Shown: positions 28,730 through 37,357, counted from the stretch's first letter. The stretch: 64,000 nt of DNA from Escherichia coli (GCF_003991155.1 NZ_CP031293.1), one strand, 5' to 3'. Numbers and translations are program-made. Notes: generated by a model from the sequence alone, not told the origin.

Positions 28730-29491
28730 TCAGAGCGCATCAAGGAAATGTGGAACAAAACTGCCTGGCCCCTCGCTTCTGGCAACTGCGCGTTCTCCGG
28801 CTTGTTTCATCCAGTGACAGGCAGATGCGATATTTTCCAGCGTATCGCCTGGTAGCGCACAACAGGCAGCGACAACCGCCGATAATGCACAGCCAGTTCC
28901 TACCACTTTGGTCATTAGCGGATCGCCACCGTGAATGCCAACGATACGATGTCCATCGGTAACATAATCCACCTCGCCAGTGACCACGACGATTGCGCCA
29001 GTTTCCCGTGCCAGTGTTTGTGCAGCAGGTATCGCGTTAGCTGCGGCATCAGTGGTATCCACTCCCCGTCCGCCATTAGCAACGCCAGCTAATGCCATGA
29101 TTTCCGAAGCATTACCACGTATGGCGGTTGGCTTATGAGACAGAAGTTCCAGACAAAAACGGCGGCGATAATCGAGTGCACCCACCGCTACTGGATCAAG
29201 CGTCCAGGGTGTTTGAGAGCGTTTTGCCTGTTCAACGGCGGCACGCATCGCCTGTGCGCGTGGCTGCGTCAGCGTGCCAACGTTAATCAGCAACGCACTG
29301 GCGATTGCCGCAAACTGACTGGCCTCTTCGGTTTCGATGACCATCGCTGGCGATGCACCGAGCGCCAGTAAGGTATTGGCAGTAAAGGTTTGCACCACAT
29401 CATTGGTCATACAGTGCACAAGGGGGGAATGTTTGTGAAAAAGATGTAACGCGTGCGCAGATTGCGCGGAACTCAGCAGGTCGACTTGCAT
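28730..29491 (-). CDS. thiM: ThiM hydroxyethylthiazole kinase (253 aa; ends at an in-frame TGA 27 nt before the thiD-overlapping stop)
   Basis: [39 protein letters not shown]... The riboswitch lies directly upstream. Confidence 0.93.
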
Positions 29492-29625
29492 AGTTTGCTC
29501 CTGCCATAACGTGAAGAAGCAATGACCTGGTGGTCCGTGACTTCCCTACGCTGGCATTATCCAGATCAGGTGATACGGGTATTTCTCAGCCTTCACGCAG
29601 AAGGGCACCCCGAGTCGTTTGGTTG
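29492..29625 (-). promoter_or_regulatory. thiM TPP (thi-box) riboswitch: aptamer plus SD-sequestering expression platform
   Basis: The minus strand reads ..AACCAAACGACUCGGGGUGCCCUUCUGCGUGAAGGCUGAGAAAUACCCGUAUCACCUGAUCUGGAUAAUGCCAGCGUAGGGAAGUCACGGACCACCAGGUCAUUGCUUCUUCACGUUAUGGCAGGAGCAAACUAUG. This is the well-studied E. coli thiM riboswitch sequence. Confidence 0.93.
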
Positions 29626-29837
29626 AATCTCTATATTTTGTGCCAGCTTAGGGGAAGTGGCTTGCAGATGCAAGCTCGCCTCCATTAATTGCTTCTTCTC
29701 TGTGTACCCCATTTTGTACCCCATATCAGAAATGAAAAAGAAACATTTAACATCTATCATTCAGATGATAAAAACTATTGATTATCTTAATTTGCTAATT
29801 TATATTATTTATCTAAATTTGATAGGTGAGATAAAAA

Positions 29838-30077
29838 ATGACAGAAACCCAGATCTACGAGAACATTAAGCAAGCCATTAGCAGCGCACCACGAAATAGC
29901 CAAACGATGGAAATGCACCTCCAGATGATCAAATATGCTGACCATCTGAAAAAGGTTACGGCAAAAGAGTTTTGTGAAGGTGTAGGACTTAAAGCCAGCT
30001 TTGGTACAGAGTTCAGCAAAATGAGAAATCTTACCGAGCGACTCAAAGCTGCTGGACTTGACACCACGAAGTTATAA
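29838..30077 (+). CDS. Hypothetical small protein (79 aa), island-borne
   Basis: ORF preceded by an AT-rich promoter-like region and GGTGAGATAAAAAATG. No family recognised. Confidence 0.5.
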   Translation: MTETQIYENIKQAISSAPRNSQTMEMHLQMIKYADHLKKVTAKEFCEGVGLKASFGTEFSKMRNLTERLKAAGLDTTKL

Positions 30078-30242
30078 AAAACAAATCATCAATATATTAT
30101 TTTTGTTTTCCAGACTTACTTGCATATGTTTCTACGAGCATAAAAAACAACAACCACCACATAGCTATTACCATAATAATGTTTTCCTTTTATATTAAAC
30201 AGAGAAATAGAATTAGAGCGTGGAATAGATGAATTCTATTTT

Positions 30243-30488
30243 CTATAACTTCTTGAGGTTGAATGTAGAAAAAGACAGCTCTTTCATTTCAATAACACCG
30301 AAATTTGATAGCTGTTTCAGCCAGAATTTTAAACCTGACTCAGAGCAACCTGCTCGATGTAACACATCGCTATATTTTAGCGGTGTTGGCTTTCCTTTAT
30401 AGAGGTAAACAAGCGTTTCGTAGGTGTGTTTTCCGGTGTCGTTACACTGAATGCGGTCTACTTGATTTTTTACTAAATATTGGATCAT
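30243..30488 (-). CDS. Hypothetical small protein, possible winged-helix DNA-binding protein (81 aa)
   Basis: ORF starts 12 nt downstream of the stop of the 239-aa gene, with an AGGAGGA RBS. wHTH-like segment (YSDVLHRAGCSESGLKFWLKQLSNFGVI). Confidence 0.5.
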   Translation of the reverse strand: MIQYLVKNQVDRIQCNDTGKHTYETLVYLYKGKPTPLKYSDVLHRAGCSESGLKFWLKQLSNFGVIEMKELSFSTFNLKKL

Positions 30489-30499
30489 AGTCCTCCTTA

Positions 30500-31219
30500 T
30501 TAAAATGGAATGTCAAAATCGTCCTCTTCTGTCTCAGGTATCGTGTATATATGTTCTCTTCCTGTAAATTCAGAAACCACTATTGAAATTAGCCTGTATG
30601 CCTCTATTTTATCGCCCTGCGTTTCAGCTAAAGCCCACTCAAGGGCTGCTTCTGTTGGCTGTCCATTCGGTTTGCAAATAGTGACACCGCCCCAAGGAAG
30701 CTCTGTTTTTTCCTGCTGAATAGAGCGTGTTGTTTCTAGTGTTTTTTTATCTTCCGTAGGGGGAAGCTGTTCAGGAACAGCTTTAACAGTAGATACTTGC
30801 TCTGTCTGTGGCTTTTCTGCATTTACAGAGGCTTTCGCTTCTCTTGGTGCTGTAATATGTGCATCTGTAAAGGGTAATGCTTTATAGAGTGATGTTTGAC
30901 CGTGGCGTGCCTCTACAGAAAGAACTCCCATATCAACAAACATATTTATAATATTGCGTACCTGACGATCACTAACCATTCCAATATTAGCTAATGTTTT
31001 TTGAGTAGCGTAACATTCTTGCCCTTGTTCATTGAATCCAGCTATATAGCTATAGATTTCAACGGCTGGCAGTGTAGCGGTGTATTCATTACCAGATGGT
31101 GAGTACCATTTTTTAAACATCTTCAACCATTGCTCAACAACTACATATTTTTGTTTACCATCTTTCTGATTTAGACATTTGGCTTTCGCTTCGGCAATTG
31201 TTTTGATATTTTTGATCAT
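30500..31219 (-). CDS. wHTH replication-initiator-like protein with a Pro/Glu/Lys/Thr-rich (likely disordered) linker and an SSB-tip-like C-terminus (239 aa)
   Basis: HTH segment ATQKTLANIGMVSDRQVRNIINMFVDMGVL, typical of phage/plasmid O/DnaD-like N-terminal wHTH proteins. The C-terminus is ...ETEEDDFDIPF. Confidence 0.6.
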   Translation of the reverse strand: MIKNIKTIAEAKAKCLNQKDGKQKYVVVEQWLKMFKKWYSPSGNEYTATLPAVEIYSYIAGFNEQGQECYATQKTLANIGMVSDRQVRNIINMFVDMGVLSVEARHGQTSLYKALPFTDAHITAPREAKASVNAEKPQTEQVSTVKAVPEQLPPTEDKKTLETTRSIQQEKTELPWGGVTICKPNGQPTEAALEWALAETQGDKIEAYRLISIVVSEFTGREHIYTIPETEEDDFDIPF

Positions 31220-31343
31220 TTAGTTCCTCCTTTGTAAGGACTGTAATTAGTAGTTCATTAACAAGTTTTGGAATTGATTTCCCTTCTGCCTTTGCGCGAT
31301 TTAACAACGCGTTATAAGTTGCAGAGTCAAAATTAATATTCAT
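31155..31343 (-). CDS. Ribbon-helix-helix (Arc/CopG-like) small protein (62 aa)
   Basis: MNINFDSATYNALLNRAKAEGKSIPKLVNELL is an RHH-like pattern. GGAGAGGAGAA RBS lies 7 nt upstream of ATG 31343. The 3' end overlaps the next gene by 65 nt, so the exact extent is uncertain. Confidence 0.5.
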   Translation of the reverse strand: MNINFDSATYNALLNRAKAEGKSIPKLVNELLITVLTKEELNDQKYQNNCRSESQMSKSERW

Positions 31344-31365
31344 TTGGTTTTCTCCTCTCCTGTTA

Positions 31366-31548
31366 TTATTCTTTCTCTGCTTCTGCCTTACGCAGTTCAT
31401 CAATAATCTTGAGTGCATCGTCAAAGCATTTTTCACGCTCTGGATAACCTCGACTCCTTGCCATATTACGATTCATTACTACTTGATGTCGTGTTAACTC
31501 ACCTTTTTTAAATGCCTCTACGACGTGTTCCGGTATAAACCATTTCAT
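31366..31548 (-). CDS. Hypothetical small protein (60 aa), first gene of the leftward island operon
   Basis: AAGGAG RBS 7 nt upstream. Candidate promoter TTGACA-N17-AATAAT on the minus strand at 31687-31659. Confidence 0.5.
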   Translation of the reverse strand: MKWFIPEHVVEAFKKGELTRHQVVMNRNMARSRGYPEREKCFDDALKIIDELRKAEAEKE

Positions 31549-33312
31549 AAAAAACTCCTTATTCAGTTAAAAGAAAAACACCTTGCAAGCCTGACGGCTT
31601 CAAAGTGCATTGATTTTGATTATTTAGAGAAGAATGTTTTTCTGTCCCTCTAGTACCTATTATTACATATAAATAAACATTTGTCAATATCTTTTCATAA
31701 AAAATCAGAACCTTTTCATGCACTTACATTTTTTCTTAGCGATTCGTGCTCTCCTGTGTAGTGCTATTCTTCATTACCAGCTAAAACGCTCTAAAACGCG
31801 TTCTAACGAAGTTTTGATAAAAGCAATACATTCTCTTATGTAATGGCTGTTTAGCTCGCCAGAGGCTTATTTAAGTGGCTTATTTTGTATTTGTTAGATG
31901 ATGATAGATATAAAACAGAGAGTTCTTAGATTAGTTACTTTATAAAACGCTCTGTAAAGCCCTGTAGTGAGTTTATATATGTAGGCAAAGCGGTTTCCAT
32001 TCTCTACCCTGCTTAATGCTGTTAGAGAAGCATTTAGACCCCTTATTTTTAATTACCTAAAGTATCCTCTATACATCTCTGTTATGAAACACCTCTGAAT
32101 CCTTCATAAAACACATTATGACGCAAAGAACACTTTTCTAAGGTGATTCCCTTCCTGAACTCTGTTTCTTGCGTCAGAGAGCTACACAGAGAGCTTATAA
32201 AGCTATTATTAATAATAAAGTAGATAAAGTAAGTAAGATAAGTAAGAAGATTAACTAAGATAGATAAGATTAATAAGATCAGAATTCTCTTTCGGTGTCG
32301 CCTCTGGCTTTTCCACCGAAAACAATTACACGACTACAGAATGTAGGAAGTGAAATTGTATTGAGGCTTAGTGAAATTACACGAGGAAAGCAGAGTGTAA
32401 TTGAGCTTTAGCCGCTCTCTCTTCGAGTAATTACACAACTACAGAGAATAACAGAGTTATTAAATGTAGGAGGGTAATTAAGAGTTAGAGAGAGTTAACA
32501 CGTAAGCAATCAGATGATTGGTTAGGTGATTACTCTTACTGCGCACAGCGCAATAGTATTCCTTCGTGGGCGTTACCGCCAACGATAGTTACACGAAGAA
32601 AGTAACGCTTTGCTTTCGGTGTGAGCGGAACGGGCCAGCCACAAAGCCCGAAAGGTAGCGGAGTAAGGCTGCTTGCCAGAGAGTGGAGCTAACGCCGGAA
32701 GGCAAAAGATCATATATATAGTATAAAGAATATTATTTAATTATAGTATTGGTGGAACTCATTACCTAAGGTAAACCGGAGACCACTTCCAACGGTTAGG
32801 CAACCACTTCCAATTGTGTTATTTCCCCTTTTACCCTAAGTAAATTTTAGCCTTTCGTTACATCCATTTATCACATAGCACTTACCCTGTGTAAATCATA
32901 GAATAATGCTCTCTATTCCCTGTGTAATTCCATACTAAAAAATTCAATGAAAAGTAGTTTAAAAGTGCAATGTTAGCTTTCTTCACTTTTACATCACTTT
33001 CGCTGCGCCTTGTGTAATGCGGCTTACAGAGCACTATCAGAAATTATTGATCAAAAATCAACCTATTATTTGTCGAACAAGTTTTCTTTAATGCAACAAA
33101 AATTATTTTTTCAAAATAAACACACAATTTAATAGCTTGCTAATTTTACCAAAATGTAACTACATGATTCTCATGCAAGAAGTGTAGTGATAAGGCAGGC
33201 TAAATCACCACACTAAAAAACTTCGAATTTCGTAGTGAAAAAAGTACTTTACACACCTAATCAACACGCCCAATAATCACTACACACAAATCAATACAGA
33301 AGAAAAAAGAAG
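31549..33312. other. 1.76-kb ORF-free, motif-dense region: candidate replication origin and/or structured ncRNA locus
   Basis: No ORF of 60 aa or more in any frame. ATTACAC/GTGTAAT heptamers occur in both orientations (32325, 32376, 32430 / 32395, 32922, 33012, and variant 32889). There is a C-poor TAAG-rich tract (32211-32280), a GC-richer hairpin-rich core (about 32520-32700) and a pure AT stretch (32711-32750). Confidence 0.5.
33182..33213. promoter_or_regulatory. Candidate recombinase binding (res-like) site: GTGTAGTGAT-N12-ATCACCACAC
   Basis: 10-bp inverted half-sites (1 mismatch) lie 100 bp upstream of the serine recombinase gene. Further half-site copies are at 33230 (+) and 33276 (-). 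Confidence 0.4.
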
Positions 33313-33864
33313 ATGGCTAATATTGGATACATTAGGGTATCGACTGTGCAACAAAACACAGACCGTCAATTAGCAGGAGTAACTCTTGATAAAGTCTTTG
33401 AAGATAAAGCGTCAGGCAAGAACACTCAGCGCCCACAGTTTGAGGCAATGATGAACTATGTGCGGGAGGGTGACGTGTTACACGTCCATAGTATTGATCG
33501 CCTTTGTCGTAATACAGCCGACCTTCTGGCAACTGTAGAGCAATTAACAAAGCGCGGCGTGTCTGTGCATTTCCATAAAGAAGACTTTAAGACAGGAAAG
33601 AACTCTCCCGCAGGGAATATGATGCTCACAGTTCTTGCAGCAGTGGCACAAATGGAACGTGAAATGATGCTTGAGCGTCAACGTGAAGGGATCGCCGCAG
33701 CCAAGGCCGCTGGACGTATAGCAAAACGTGGTAATGGAAAAGCAATTGATCGAGCGGGAATTGCTGCCGCTCTCGCGAATGGTGGCTCAATTCGGAGCGT
33801 AGCAAAAGATTTCAGTGTCAGCACGCAGACGGTGCAACGTATCAAGAAAGAGCAGGTGGCGTAA
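33313..33864 (+). CDS. Small serine recombinase (resolvase/invertase family, 183 aa)
   Basis: MANIGYIRVSTVQQNTDRQ catalytic-Ser motif, the D..HVHSIDRL.R motif, and a C-terminal HTH (SIRSVAKDFSVSTQTVQRI). Confidence 0.88.
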   Translation: MANIGYIRVSTVQQNTDRQLAGVTLDKVFEDKASGKNTQRPQFEAMMNYVREGDVLHVHSIDRLCRNTADLLATVEQLTKRGVSVHFHKEDFKTGKNSPAGNMMLTVLAAVAQMEREMMLERQREGIAAAKAAGRIAKRGNGKAIDRAGIAAALANGGSIRSVAKDFSVSTQTVQRIKKEQVA

Positions 33865-34030: not shown

Positions 34031-34495
34031 TTATTGATTCAGTCGATCCCATTTAACCGCAGATACAATTCCCCAATTACCACTAGCATTAGGCCTACGC
34101 CACTTCGCGGTTTCCATTCCACGAAGGTATTCGAGAGCTTCATTGAACGAACTGAAACGTTTCTGGGCTGATTTTTCCCCTACTCTAAACGAACCATCGC
34201 GAGTACTTGCCAATCCTGGATGAAAACACGACCCATCTGCAGCATAAGGAACAAGTACCTCCTGATCATCAGGTTTCCTTGAATCAGAAGCCAGTAACTG
34301 CCAAGGCTCAATACGCAAAGCGTCAGCCAGAACCTCAATTGCATCAAGAGATGCATTAGAGCAACCACGCTCAATTCGACTCATATAACTACGTGCAAAA
34401 CCACACCGATCTGCAAAGGCCTCTTGGCTTAAGCCAATAGCTATACGGAACTCTTTTACTCGTTGTCCAAAAAGGTATCTCAGATTCTTTCGCAT
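34031..34495 (-). CDS. XRE-family HTH regulator with an uncharacterised C-terminal domain (154 aa from MRKNL)
   Basis: HTH_3 pattern (LFGQRVKEFRIAIGLSQEAFADRCGFARSYMSRIERGCSNASLDAIEVLADAL), then about 85 aa with no recognised family. Confidence 0.75.
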   Translation of the reverse strand: MRKNLRYLFGQRVKEFRIAIGLSQEAFADRCGFARSYMSRIERGCSNASLDAIEVLADALRIEPWQLLASDSRKPDDQEVLVPYAADGSCFHPGLASTRDGSFRVGEKSAQKRFSSFNEALEYLRGMETAKWRRPNASGNWGIVSAVKWDRLNQ

Positions 34496-34605
34496 GGCAC
34501 AAAGATGCAATTTGACGCACCAATTAACCACGCACTAATCGTGACATTTTGAATCAATCATGTATTATTAGCATCACCATCCATTTGACACACCAAGGGA
34601 GACAA

Positions 34606-35030: not shown

Positions 35031-35756
35031 CTATTTATTAACAGGTAGTAATGTCAGATCGCCATAATGGGCTTGTCTATGGCAATTAGGACATAATGCA
35101 ATAGCATTTTCCACAGAGTCCTCCCCCCCCTTTGAAAGCCACTCAATATGATGAACTTCTAGAAATGGAGTACCATCTTCCTTTAGAAAAGGAGCATCTC
35201 GCTTACAATATTGACATTTTCCATTTGCACTCAAAAGAACTTCAGCAACTACATATGGGCTTCGTTTATAAACTCGTGTTGTTACTTCGATTAGTTCCGG
35301 GATTTTACTTTCTGTCGCTAAAATTTGCTTTCGTTCCACTGAAGATAATTTTGCAGCCGTCTCAACAGCTTCTTCGAAAACCGATTTTACTTGACGATAA
35401 CGCCACATCCCTTCTAAATCCTGGTATAATTCCCAAATACCGTGCACAGATGGTTGATAGATTTCAAAAATATTTCCACGCTTGAACAATCGGTCATACT
35501 TATGATGCCGATGAGTTACATCATCAGTTCGTCGGGCAGTTTTGTTGAAACTCCAGTAGCTCCGCTTACAATTAACTGTATTAGCAATTAAATTGAGCCA
35601 AGTATTATCTTTATAAGATGGAAATAGCTTTCTAAGATAATCATCTACCTGCTTAGCCGTTGCAGCCCCACCAAACTGATTAGCAATTATCTGTATGGTA
35701 ATAGCTCTTATCGGTTGATCGCCATACTTGTATTTTTTGCCTAAATTTTTAACCAT
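35031..35756 (-). CDS. HNH nuclease with a roughly 160-aa uncharacterised N-terminal domain (241 aa); candidate type IV-like restriction/defence nuclease
   Basis: C-terminal HNH: CQYC...FLEVHHIEWLSKGGEDSVENAIALCPNCHRQAH (McrA-like beta-beta-alpha-Me with CxxC...CxxC). The N-terminal region is not recognisable. Confidence 0.75.
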   Translation of the reverse strand: MVKNLGKKYKYGDQPIRAITIQIIANQFGGAATAKQVDDYLRKLFPSYKDNTWLNLIANTVNCKRSYWSFNKTARRTDDVTHRHHKYDRLFKRGNIFEIYQPSVHGIWELYQDLEGMWRYRQVKSVFEEAVETAAKLSSVERKQILATESKIPELIEVTTRVYKRSPYVVAEVLLSANGKCQYCKRDAPFLKEDGTPFLEVHHIEWLSKGGEDSVENAIALCPNCHRQAHYGDLTLLPVNK

Positions 35757-35884: not shown

Positions 35885-37192
35885 CTAAGTCTCCCAACAA
35901 AGACCATCGATCACATAACAAACGGTGGAAAGTGGGAATGTGTGCAGATAACGCTGGGTAATCCCTACTCCACTCTTTTCATGACCTACCACCTGTTGCA
36001 GATGCGCCAAATTACTCACCCAACCAGCTAAACAAGTAGAAATCATAGTATGCCGGAAACTATGCACCAAGCGCCGCTGCCCATAATCATCAAGATAAGG
36101 AATATCAAGCTGATCACGAACATCTGAAAGAACTTTACCTATCTTTGACATATTTCGACCTGAGACTTCCGAAAAGATTTTCTCTTTCCATTGGCGGTTA
36201 ACAAAATCCAGAAACCCCCACTCAATCAGTTTGGGATGAATCACTACCTGTCTTGTAGCATTCTCAGTTTTACCCAGCCTTCTTTCCGCGATCAGAAGAT
36301 AGTGCCGCTGGCTATCTTCATCAAATTTGATCTGCGACTTCTCCAGTTTAGCAATCTCACCTCTTCTGGCTCCTGTGTACGCCAACAACAAAGTGATCCA
36401 CTTCTGCCATCCATCAGGCTGCTTTAGTGCCCATCCTACAAATTTTTTCATTTCTGCTGCACTGTATGCACCAAACCTAGCTTTGGATGGTGCCGCTACT
36501 ATTCCATCAGTCGGAGACTTAGATAGAATATCTTTGTTTTCAGTCAGAAATGTTTTGAATAACGATTTGTAGATTTTAAGGTGCTTATGTACAGCCTCAG
36601 CACCAACTAAATCCTCTGGCAGCACATCATCACATTCGATTAGTTGCTGAATAGTCATTGACCTATACGGTTGCACTACACGCTTTGGTAAGTTTTCGAC
36701 AGTTTCCATTACTCGCTTAATATCTTGTTTGGTGATTGCCGTTACGTCTGTTTCTTTTCCCAAGACAACAAGCAATACCTCCATATAACGCTCATTTGCC
36801 ATTGAGATCGATTTTGTCCAATTTCGACCTCTTTCCTCCTTGTACATAGCCCACGCATCAGCAAGTGTTAGCACCTTTTCCGGTTTGGCTGGTGGTTGAA
36901 GCTGCAAAACTTCTTTAGAAATATTGTTCAATTGCTGAGGGAGTGGCAACGGAATCATTACGTTACGTGACGAAGCGATCAAGTTTGAAACAAACTTATT
37001 AAATTGTGGCAACGGAGTAGCGAGTGATTTAACGAAAGGAATGTGCGGAGTAAGGCCAATCATCAACGCCGATGCTTCGCGATAACTGTCAGTAAAAAGT
37101 GATTTTTTGTATATCCGACCATCCGAAAGCCGGATTTGTAGATAGTAATTACCGTTTCGCTGAAATGTGTATGGGAGAGTTCTTGACCTCAT
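35885..37192 (-). CDS. Tyrosine recombinase / phage-type integrase (435 aa from MRSRTLPYTF)
   Basis: Catalytic region ...TGARRGEI...HSFRHT...GHEKSGVGITQRYLH (R-H-R-Y). AGGGGG RBS before ATG 37192. Adjacent to the right att repeat. Confidence 0.9.
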   Translation of the reverse strand: MRSRTLPYTFQRNGNYYLQIRLSDGRIYKKSLFTDSYREASALMIGLTPHIPFVKSLATPLPQFNKFVSNLIASSRNVMIPLPLPQQLNNISKEVLQLQPPAKPEKVLTLADAWAMYKEERGRNWTKSISMANERYMEVLLVVLGKETDVTAITKQDIKRVMETVENLPKRVVQPYRSMTIQQLIECDDVLPEDLVGAEAVHKHLKIYKSLFKTFLTENKDILSKSPTDGIVAAPSKARFGAYSAAEMKKFVGWALKQPDGWQKWITLLLAYTGARRGEIAKLEKSQIKFDEDSQRHYLLIAERRLGKTENATRQVVIHPKLIEWGFLDFVNRQWKEKIFSEVSGRNMSKIGKVLSDVRDQLDIPYLDDYGQRRLVHSFRHTMISTCLAGWVSNLAHLQQVVGHEKSGVGITQRYLHTFPLSTVCYVIDGLCWET

Positions 37193-37275
37193 AAACGCCC
37201 CCTTTTTGTACCTTAACAGCATGATTTATGGTCAAAAAGAGATACAACCACATAATTTTCAAGACTATTTTGGCC

Positions 37276-37357
37276 CCCTACGCTGGCATTATCCAGATCA
37301 GGTGATACGGGTATTTCTCAGCCTTCACGCAGAAGGGCACCCCGAGTCGTTTGGTTG
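37276..37357 (-). promoter_or_regulatory. Second (orphan) copy of the thiM TPP aptamer, on the native promoter side of the island
   Basis: 100% identical to 29544-29625. It lacks the ..AAGUCACGG.. continuation and the expression platform, and is followed 83 nt later by the integrase start codon. Confidence 0.85.

Follow-up and report, generated by a model that had tools for sequence, protein, structure and literature searches.

A RepA-like initiator candidate with an SSB-like C-terminal tip in a satellite-like island of Escherichia coli

In a 64,000-nucleotide stretch of Escherichia coli DNA (GCF_003991155.1, NZ_CP031293.1; referred to here as the window), we detected a minus-strand gene whose product joins a predicted winged-helix DNA-binding domain to a C-terminus that resembles the docking tip of bacterial SSB, the protein that binds single-stranded DNA. 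The gene (rep) is encoded on a 7,732-bp island whose ends are marked by a perfect direct repeat of 82 nt within the thiamine pyrophosphate (TPP) riboswitch of thiM. The tail is kept among relatives while the rest of the protein is swapped, and the protein therefore probably borrows this peptide to summon replication enzymes. It is plausibly an initiator of the satellite or plasmid type that has taken over the docking peptide of SSB, and we see about an even chance that it is a satellite initiator recruiting host or phage replisome proteins through mimicry of the SSB tip. The gene and the parts of its product are as follows (SSB-Ct, SSB C-terminal tip; pLDDT, predicted local distance difference test).

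30500..31219, minus strand: RepA-like initiator candidate with SSB-Ct-like C-terminus, 239 amino acids (aa)
30845..31117, minus strand: predicted winged-helix DNA-binding domain, residues ~35-125 (pLDDT 87-94)
30707..30835, minus strand: disordered Pro/Glu/Lys/Thr/Gln-rich linker, residues 129-171 (pLDDT ~31-34, without secondary structure; composition)
30545..30694, minus strand: small class-A C-terminal domain, residues 176-225, with helices 190-199 and 204-219 (pLDDT 74-85)
30503..30544, minus strand: disordered acidic tail TIPETEEDDFDIPF (pLDDT <50 at residues 229-239), with the tip DDFDIPF at 30503-30523

An earlier sequence-only reading had placed a gene at these positions. The open reading frame (ORF) is real, but it runs on the minus strand, the plus-strand translation being full of stops. 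It begins with an ATG at 31219, with AGGAGG six nucleotides upstream, and the identical gene in E. coli chromosomes is labelled as a hypothetical protein in RefSeq (WP_000594464.1). The product ends in ...EHIYTIPETEEDDFDIPF-stop (...EEDDFDIPF), as that reading had pointed out. Pfam and an AlphaFold2 model, built from an alignment of 23 homologues, also agree with the N-terminal winged helix-turn-helix (wHTH), the disordered linker and the tail that it had described, and reveal a small two-helix domain (residues 190-219) that it had overlooked. Its further view, that the protein lacks an oligonucleotide-binding (OB) fold and is not simply an SSB, held in the Pfam search, in the AlphaFold2 model and in the structure comparison.

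The Pfam search for known domains, a check that had been proposed along with that reading, returned a single match and no OB fold. This match, HTH_36 (PF13730; residues 55-98), passed its gathering threshold narrowly (25.1 bits against a cut-off of 25), and phage homologues reach 44-56 bits against the same family. HTH_36 was the only family reported at an E-value of 1 or better, which places the protein outside Pfam RepA_N (PF06970), and neither Phage_rep_O nor DnaD_N gave a Pfam match. In PHROGs we found twelve weak matches over residues ~40-170 (3.6e-7 to 1e-3); in eleven cases the family is a replication-initiation, O-like or DnaD-like one, and in the twelfth it has no known function. An NCBIfam search gave only two insignificant matches (E 0.12 and 0.15) far under their cut-offs, a PADLOC search no match, and a PDB sequence search wHTH matches only, all insignificant. 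In the structure comparison, the best match to the modelled winged-helix domain is RepA, which initiates replication of the Vibrio PLE satellite, and the predicted N-terminal fold resembles RepA_N and DnaD-N.

To follow the tip, we gathered 88 cluster representatives of relatives from three database searches. Their C-terminal endings are distributed as follows.

[IL]PF: 37
another xPF: 3
IPFF: 1
EAF: 26, one Serratia clade
another terminal Phe: 4
no terminal Phe: 17

The last group consists mostly of fragments or truncations (nine), together with three phage chimeras, P0009 (which has an alternative C-terminus) and four distant proteins. In 15 loci from viral collections, the tip was retained in every complete protein. 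When the last eight residues were removed and the C-terminal 54 residues were compared by BLAST, the relatives fell into classes without mutual similarity, namely A (the query and four others, P0024, P0040, P0041 and P0052), B (five), C (two) and smaller groups. The classes end in DDFDIPF, DEFDPIPF, EFEDLPF, EDFDIPF, FFDPIPF, EEFELPF or IYDS[IL]PF. The pattern common to them is an aromatic residue, acidic residues and [IL]-P-F, like DFDDDIPF of SSB. Four N-terminal types pair with the C-terminal classes in many combinations. The proposal of tip mimicry had hinged on homologues conserving the terminus, and they do keep an acidic ...[IL]PF end, even across C-terminal domains without detectable mutual similarity, the relatives from Serratia being different (...EAF). 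By this comparison the tail is the best-conserved C-terminal feature of the relatives. A chance origin of the SSB-like tail appears unlikely, because, of the 138 ORFs in the window that reach 60 aa, no other ends in PF, and because [IL]PF recurs in 37 of the 88 relatives. When SSB-Ct docks, a basic lip holds the carboxylate of the terminal Phe, the Phe itself is buried in a hydrophobic pocket, and the Asp residues lie along a basic ridge; deletion of the Phe abolishes binding, and a Pro-to-Ser change weakens it (PMC10164576). Judged from its residues, the tip fits these published requirements: acidic residues lie upstream, Pro is in the penultimate position, and the carboxylate of the terminal Phe is free.

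The label of an island replication-like protein, given in the sequence-only reading, gains support from the PHROG initiator families and from tandem iterons adjoining an AT-rich stretch in the 1.7-kb non-coding gap of the island. The features of the gap are listed here.

32754..32811, minus strand: three iteron cores of N1 type, all degenerate, at spacings of 21 and 24 bp, GGAAGTGGTTGCC, GGAAGTGGTCTCC and GGTAATGAGTTCC (from sequence)
32705..32753, unstranded: AT-rich candidate unwinding element, immediately following the iterons (same layout in L002 and L006)
32490..32704, unstranded: GC-richer stretch with strong single-strand folding (folding against shuffles)
32216-32282, unstranded: TAAGATAAG-type short repeats, kept in many relatives independently of the Rep type
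32324-33019, unstranded: eight AATTACACRA sites (8/10 window matches), in many relatives whatever the Rep type

Relatives with the N1-type N-terminal domain, which is that of the query, carry three to five head-to-tail repeats with GGAAATGAGTTCC, spaced 22-23 bp apart and followed directly by AT-rich DNA, and N2 and N2b relatives carry tandem 22-bp repeats with GGTAGGTCAyWGTGA. The arrays track the N-terminal type well, though not perfectly: GGAAATGAGTTCC is present in 11 of the 12 N1 loci and tandem GGTAGGTCA in all 11 N2/N2b loci, three N2 loci carrying both, and the copies in the window are degenerate. We found no DnaA box in the gap. The AATTACACRA repeats were also considered as cognate iterons and rejected; the rep-proximal triplet is missing from elements of the same N-type, and the motif occurs regardless of the Rep N-terminal type and is therefore not the cognate iteron. 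A lambda O-like origin inside the rep gene or the variable cassette was likewise set aside, as three loci show no repeat arrays there. The folding of 32490-32704 is strong on both readings (z = -3.97 as minus-strand DNA and -4.30 as plus-strand RNA; 0/200 shuffles as good), and this stretch, which has no Rfam match, could be a single-strand initiation signal, a primosome-assembly signal or a small RNA.

Homologues of the protein are encoded in 11-13-kb islands of E. coli (L002-L011 and L016-L031) and Serratia (L032 and L033) that share the same module of serine recombinase, long gap, small genes and rep. These islands also have genes for an integrase, a capsid protein (Phage_cap_E) and tape-measure-like and Dit-like proteins; a terminase or portal was not seen in the family. 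Because islands with the rep module carry capsid, tape-measure and Dit-like genes, their gene content suggests that the family represents phage satellites, possibly of a kind that accompanies large myoviruses and has not been described before. The island in the window has the broad features of phage satellites (PICI, PLE or P4-like), namely an integrase, attachment (att) repeats, a size of 7.7 kb and its own predicted replication module. A distant relative from a finished assembly, CP148565 (L036), is circular, 13.2 kb long and without an integrase; it has capsid, baseplate and tape-measure genes, its own 23-bp iterons and a Rep relative with a larger C-terminal domain. This circular element and the 98.9% nucleotide identity to a virulent phage gene are indirect signs of helper-dependent induction, replication and packaging. 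A plasmid role was considered and dropped, PLSDB holding no close homologue except one mislabelled chromosome. In a full-text literature search of incomplete coverage, we found no description of this satellite family or of its link to the Stephanstirmvirinae.

The island family and virulent phages have recently exchanged DNA, as seen in the alignment of the island with the genome of phage muut.

30864..31124, minus strand: segment matching muut gp094, 98.9% nucleotide identity over 261 nt (island compared with the muut genome by local blastn)
NC_052657 81258-82256 (L012 11635-12633): gp094 of the virulent phage muut (Justusliebigvirus)

The matching segment codes for most of the winged helix, and related copies were detected with tblastn in phages inny, BI-EHEC and Mt1B1_P17. 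Gp094 is a chimera of an N3-type winged helix, the satellite linker sequence TVKAVPDQLPPTE, an N1-type winged helix and a C-terminal domain. The latter matches Pfam MUG113 (22.5 bits against a cut-off of 22.3), weakly T5orf172, and the 'endonuclease' family phrog_681. The AlphaFold2 model of gp094, made from a shallow alignment, is poor in this part (C-terminal 114 residues with pLDDT <50), and the GIY-YIG assignment therefore rests on MUG113, T5orf172 and phrog_681. By its domain make-up, gp094 looks like an E. coli counterpart of ICP1 Odn, a nuclease that copies the DNA-binding domain of PLE RepA to cut the PLE origin and that is thought to have driven the swapping of RepA N-domains (PMC8263062). 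Non-coding DNA common to the island gap and muut was sought with blastn, and the matches were at chance level only.

The same phages encode SSB-like proteins with the tip. Members of phrog_4477 in Stephanstirmvirinae and Vequintavirinae (292-409 aa, annotated as SSB in several records; loci L034, L035, L037 and L038 besides those of muut) end in ...EPPMDFDDDIPF in BI-EHEC, ...VDFDDDIPF in a Klebsiella phage and ...MDWDDDVPF in phiTE-type phages. In muut gp037 (L014 22909-23856) and in phi92-type phages, DFDDDIPF is internal, with 15 residues after it (APIGLQYGRNFLHCF). A search for the muut SSB through OB-domain similarity failed as such: tblastn matched the tail only, and this led to gp037. 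The phage SSB-like proteins carry the host tip; in an infected cell, host proteins therefore read this tip, and phage proteins very probably do so too. The partner of the island protein may be the helper-phage replisome, instead of or beside that of the host, because the SSB-like proteins of related phages share the tip.

As a separate observation, muut contains between 66.5 and 72.3 kb (L015/L012) five GGGAAATGGTTTCCC palindromes on one strand, located between early sigma-70-like promoters and ribosome-binding sites. About 0.14 chance matches are expected (our own estimate from pattern degeneracy and genome length). In sequence the palindromes are similar to the N1 iteron core; operators or hairpins of 5'-untranslated regions are possible roles for them.

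The remaining features of the island and of the operon around rep are the following.

29544..29625, unstranded: left copy (att) of the 82-nt direct repeat, within the TPP riboswitch of thiM (Rfam TPP 29526-29622)
37276..37357, unstranded: right 82-nt direct repeat (att), duplicated TPP riboswitch (Rfam TPP 37259-37354)
35885..37222, minus strand: tyrosine integrase (Pfam Phage_integrase, phrog_1, RefSeq annotation)
35031-35756, minus strand: HNH protein resembling type IV methyl-directed restriction enzymes (PADLOC mREase_IV 1.9e-23)
34031-34531, minus strand: XRE or 'control protein'-like regulator
33313..33864, plus strand: serine invertase/resolvase, flanking the non-coding gap in every relative (Pfam Resolvase 1.1e-38, phrog_125, synteny)
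31659..31687, minus strand: predicted sigma-70-like promoter TTGACA-17-AATAAT, TG extended, upstream of the operon (consensus scan 11/12)
31366..31548, minus strand: first operon gene, 60 aa, no family match, kept upstream of rep in all relatives
31155..31343, minus strand: unannotated 62-aa ORF with its own ribosome-binding site GGAGAGGAG (phrog_36888 at 1.8e-4)
30243..30488, minus strand: 81-aa gene directly downstream of rep, no family match, kept in relatives

The TPP riboswitch is doubled because the 82-nt repeat lies inside it. Through this repeat a complete riboswitch is rebuilt at both island ends, and thiM therefore retains its riboswitch; the second, orphan copy faces rcnR. Besides these two copies, the Rfam scan of the island returned nothing. 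We found at least 80% of a 4-kb query (29400-33400, from the thiM 3' end to the start of the serine recombinase) in 76 of the 5,426 complete E. coli genomes. The rep gene lies in a minus-strand operon between the 62-aa ORF and the 81-aa gene, with the 60-aa gene in front. The 62-aa ORF overlaps the start of rep by 65 nt and is ribbon-helix-helix-like by eye only; the block 30868-31394, in which it lies, is non-homologous to L009-L011. In other elements this ORF is replaced along with the N-terminal domain of Rep, and it may therefore be a type-specific regulator. The HNH protein and the XRE regulator, to judge by their family matches, are possible anti-phage cargo of a minimal satellite-like element. 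The island also carries an HTH_73 gene and codes for a small protein of unknown function whose hydrophobic N-terminus is signal-peptide-like by eye. Domain and family searches found no genes for hijacking or remodelling helper virions in the island. Elsewhere, in the strain background of E. coli NZ_CP029747, a ParD/ParE toxin-antitoxin pair is inserted between yegP and yegQ (L001 1725-2319), ~18 kb upstream of thiM.

We infer iteron binding, the docking partners and docking-driven replication as follows. The winged helix, with its RepA_N/DnaD-like fold, would bind the tandem 22-23-bp iterons located ~1.5 kb upstream, beside the AT-rich stretch. The disordered linker of ~45 residues and the short acidic tail would then present a free C-terminal ...DDFDIPF, and this likeness of the SSB tip (DFDDDIPF) would dock in the SSB-tip pockets of replication proteins. 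Candidates are the host PriA, PriC, DnaG primase and chi subunit, and/or a helper-phage helicase-primase or polymerase; for DnaG, chi and PriA, binding to SSB-Ct is documented (PMC5872125, PMC3045619, PMC5531588). Helicase and primase would in this way be brought to the origin of an element that codes for neither and has no DnaA boxes. Domain and family searches found no helicase, primase, loader or polymerase among the island ORFs, and no SSB partner protein is encoded in the window.

Several observations weigh against recruitment by tip mimicry. The Serratia relatives, which reside in similar islands, end in ...E[YH]Dxx-EAF, without Pro or Ile, and the SSB of Serratia presumably ends in DDDIPF. 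The idea that these EAF tips track the SSB tail of a helper phage gained no support from the phiTE-type SSB-like proteins, which end in DWDDDVPF. P0015 ends in ISF, which equals the ssb-113 change, and P0024 in IPFF, and both endings should weaken binding to the canonical pocket. An internal motif DLDDIPF (PDLDDIPFAWDEP) is present in the disordered linker of P0024 and P0033, beside the terminal tip; such internal copies, including that of muut gp037, offer, as read from their position in the chain, no free carboxylate. More distant relatives, e.g. that of the circular element CP148565, lack any tip. The covariation of iterons with N-type is incomplete, some N2 elements having both arrays and N1 elements one N2-type core. 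Finally, the iterons in the window are degenerate and the island is without structural genes, and this copy may therefore be defective.

Among the other explanations, the one that survives best is that the tip acts as a decoy, titrating SSB-interacting proteins off host or phage SSB in a satellite interference or defence function. The conservation of the tip speaks equally for it, the phages that could serve as helpers rely on an SSB-like protein whose tip is identical, and the island has cargo of a defence type (the HNH protein, PADLOC mREase_IV 1.9e-23). A soluble competitor would, however, have no need of a sequence-specific wHTH tethered through a linker, of iterons that track the N-type or of an AT-rich stretch, and a micromolar peptide (KD, the dissociation constant, ~3 uM for RecG, PMC10164576) would need very high expression against tetrameric SSB. 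We consider a decoy unlikely.

The tail might instead fold onto the basic DNA-binding surface of the protein that carries it and serve there as a mimic of DNA or an autoinhibitor, its likeness to SSB-Ct being physicochemical only. Acidic tails of SSB, T7 gp2.5 and T4 gp32 have been reported to act in this manner. The charges would suit such a role, as six of the 14 tail residues are acidic and none is basic, and the N-terminal 128 residues are net basic (16 Lys+Arg against 12 Asp+Glu); moreover, the Serratia clade retains an acidic-aromatic ...EAF end instead of IPF. Yet charge mimicry alone does not require an invariant terminal Pro-Phe across unrelated C-terminal modules, and a docked tail is absent from the AlphaFold2 model, which is low-confidence evidence. 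Autoinhibition as the whole explanation seems to us improbable; an autoinhibitory tail could be compatible with recruitment through the tip.

Of similarly low probability, in our view, is a transcription regulator of the element that is not an initiator and whose terminal motif contacts another partner, e.g. a helper-phage or satellite protein. Head-to-tail 22-23-bp repeats beside AT-rich DNA are the classic layout of an iteron origin, the PHROG matches go to initiator families (11 of 12, the remaining family being of unknown function), the top structural match is a proven satellite initiator, and no other candidate for a replication protein is present on the element. That the protein is simply a divergent SSB, or that its C-terminus resembles SSB by chance, is very improbable; the tip alone speaks for such a reading, and the OB-fold and homologue-terminus tests refute it here.

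How the helicase-less PLE RepA brings the replisome to its origin has been stated as an open question (PMC7145576), and a conserved copy of the SSB tip on an initiator is a concrete hypothesis for replisome recruitment by initiators without helicase or primase. If recruitment by tip mimicry is true, the network of SSB-Ct pockets would be an entry point for mobile elements as well, beyond genome maintenance. It would be the first case that we found of an SSB docking peptide on a double-stranded DNA (dsDNA) origin binder, our full-text literature search, of incomplete coverage, having returned no precedent for an SSB-Ct mimic on a non-SSB protein. Gp094 further suggests that an Odn-type anti-satellite weapon, known only from ICP1, is also present in E. 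coli phages of therapy collections. More tentatively, and with less than an even chance of being right, the elements can be pictured as enterobacterial satellites that have large virulent myoviruses (phi92-, phAPEC8- and rV5-like) as helpers and whose minimal initiator of iteron-binding wHTH, linker and SSB-tip mimic plugs into the host or phage replisome. In the same picture they would be engaged in an ICP1/PLE-style arms race with an Odn-like phage nuclease made from stolen initiator DNA-binding domains, which would drive the shuffling of N-modules while the tip is kept. Were this so, the minimal initiator would answer how helicase-less initiators such as PLE RepA recruit the replisome.

Of the known systems, RepA of the Vibrio cholerae PLE (RepA_N-type; PDB 4RO3; PMC7145576, PMC8263062) appears closest in working, and the likeness in fold lies in the modelled winged-helix domain. 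The two proteins share no sequence similarity, the protein in the window belongs to HTH_36 and not to RepA_N, and the hosts and phage families are others; an SSB-like tip is not described for PLE RepA in PMC7145576 and PMC8263062. Gp094 resembles ICP1 Odn in that it also joins initiator-type DNA-binding domains to a nuclease-like domain. With HTH_36, lambda O-like and DnaD-like initiators, the protein shares the arrangement of wHTH, linker and C-terminal effector part, together with the weak PHROG matches. It differs from lambda O-like initiators in having no Phage_rep_O match, no lambda P-type loader nearby and an origin that is not inside the gene. The SSB-like phage proteins of phrog_4477 are unrelated to it, with their 292-409 aa, but have the same tip and belong to a phage group that exchanges DNA with the element family.

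RK2 TrfA bears a clamp-binding motif, and T7 gp4 and gp2.5 both bear acidic tails that end in Phe. As in these proteins, a short linear motif would here plug into a pocket that normally serves another replisome component, although motif and partner differ from those of TrfA and the tip lacks the Q-L-x-L-F clamp consensus. From bacterial SSB itself, an OB-fold tetramer (PF00436-type), the protein differs in that the carrier of the tip is a predicted dsDNA-binding winged helix, and its acidic run is one residue shorter (DDFDIPF) than that of SSB-Ct (...DFDDDIPF). The two termini share the acidic run, the upstream aromatic residue, the Ile-Pro-Phe with a free carboxylate and the position at the end of a disordered linker.

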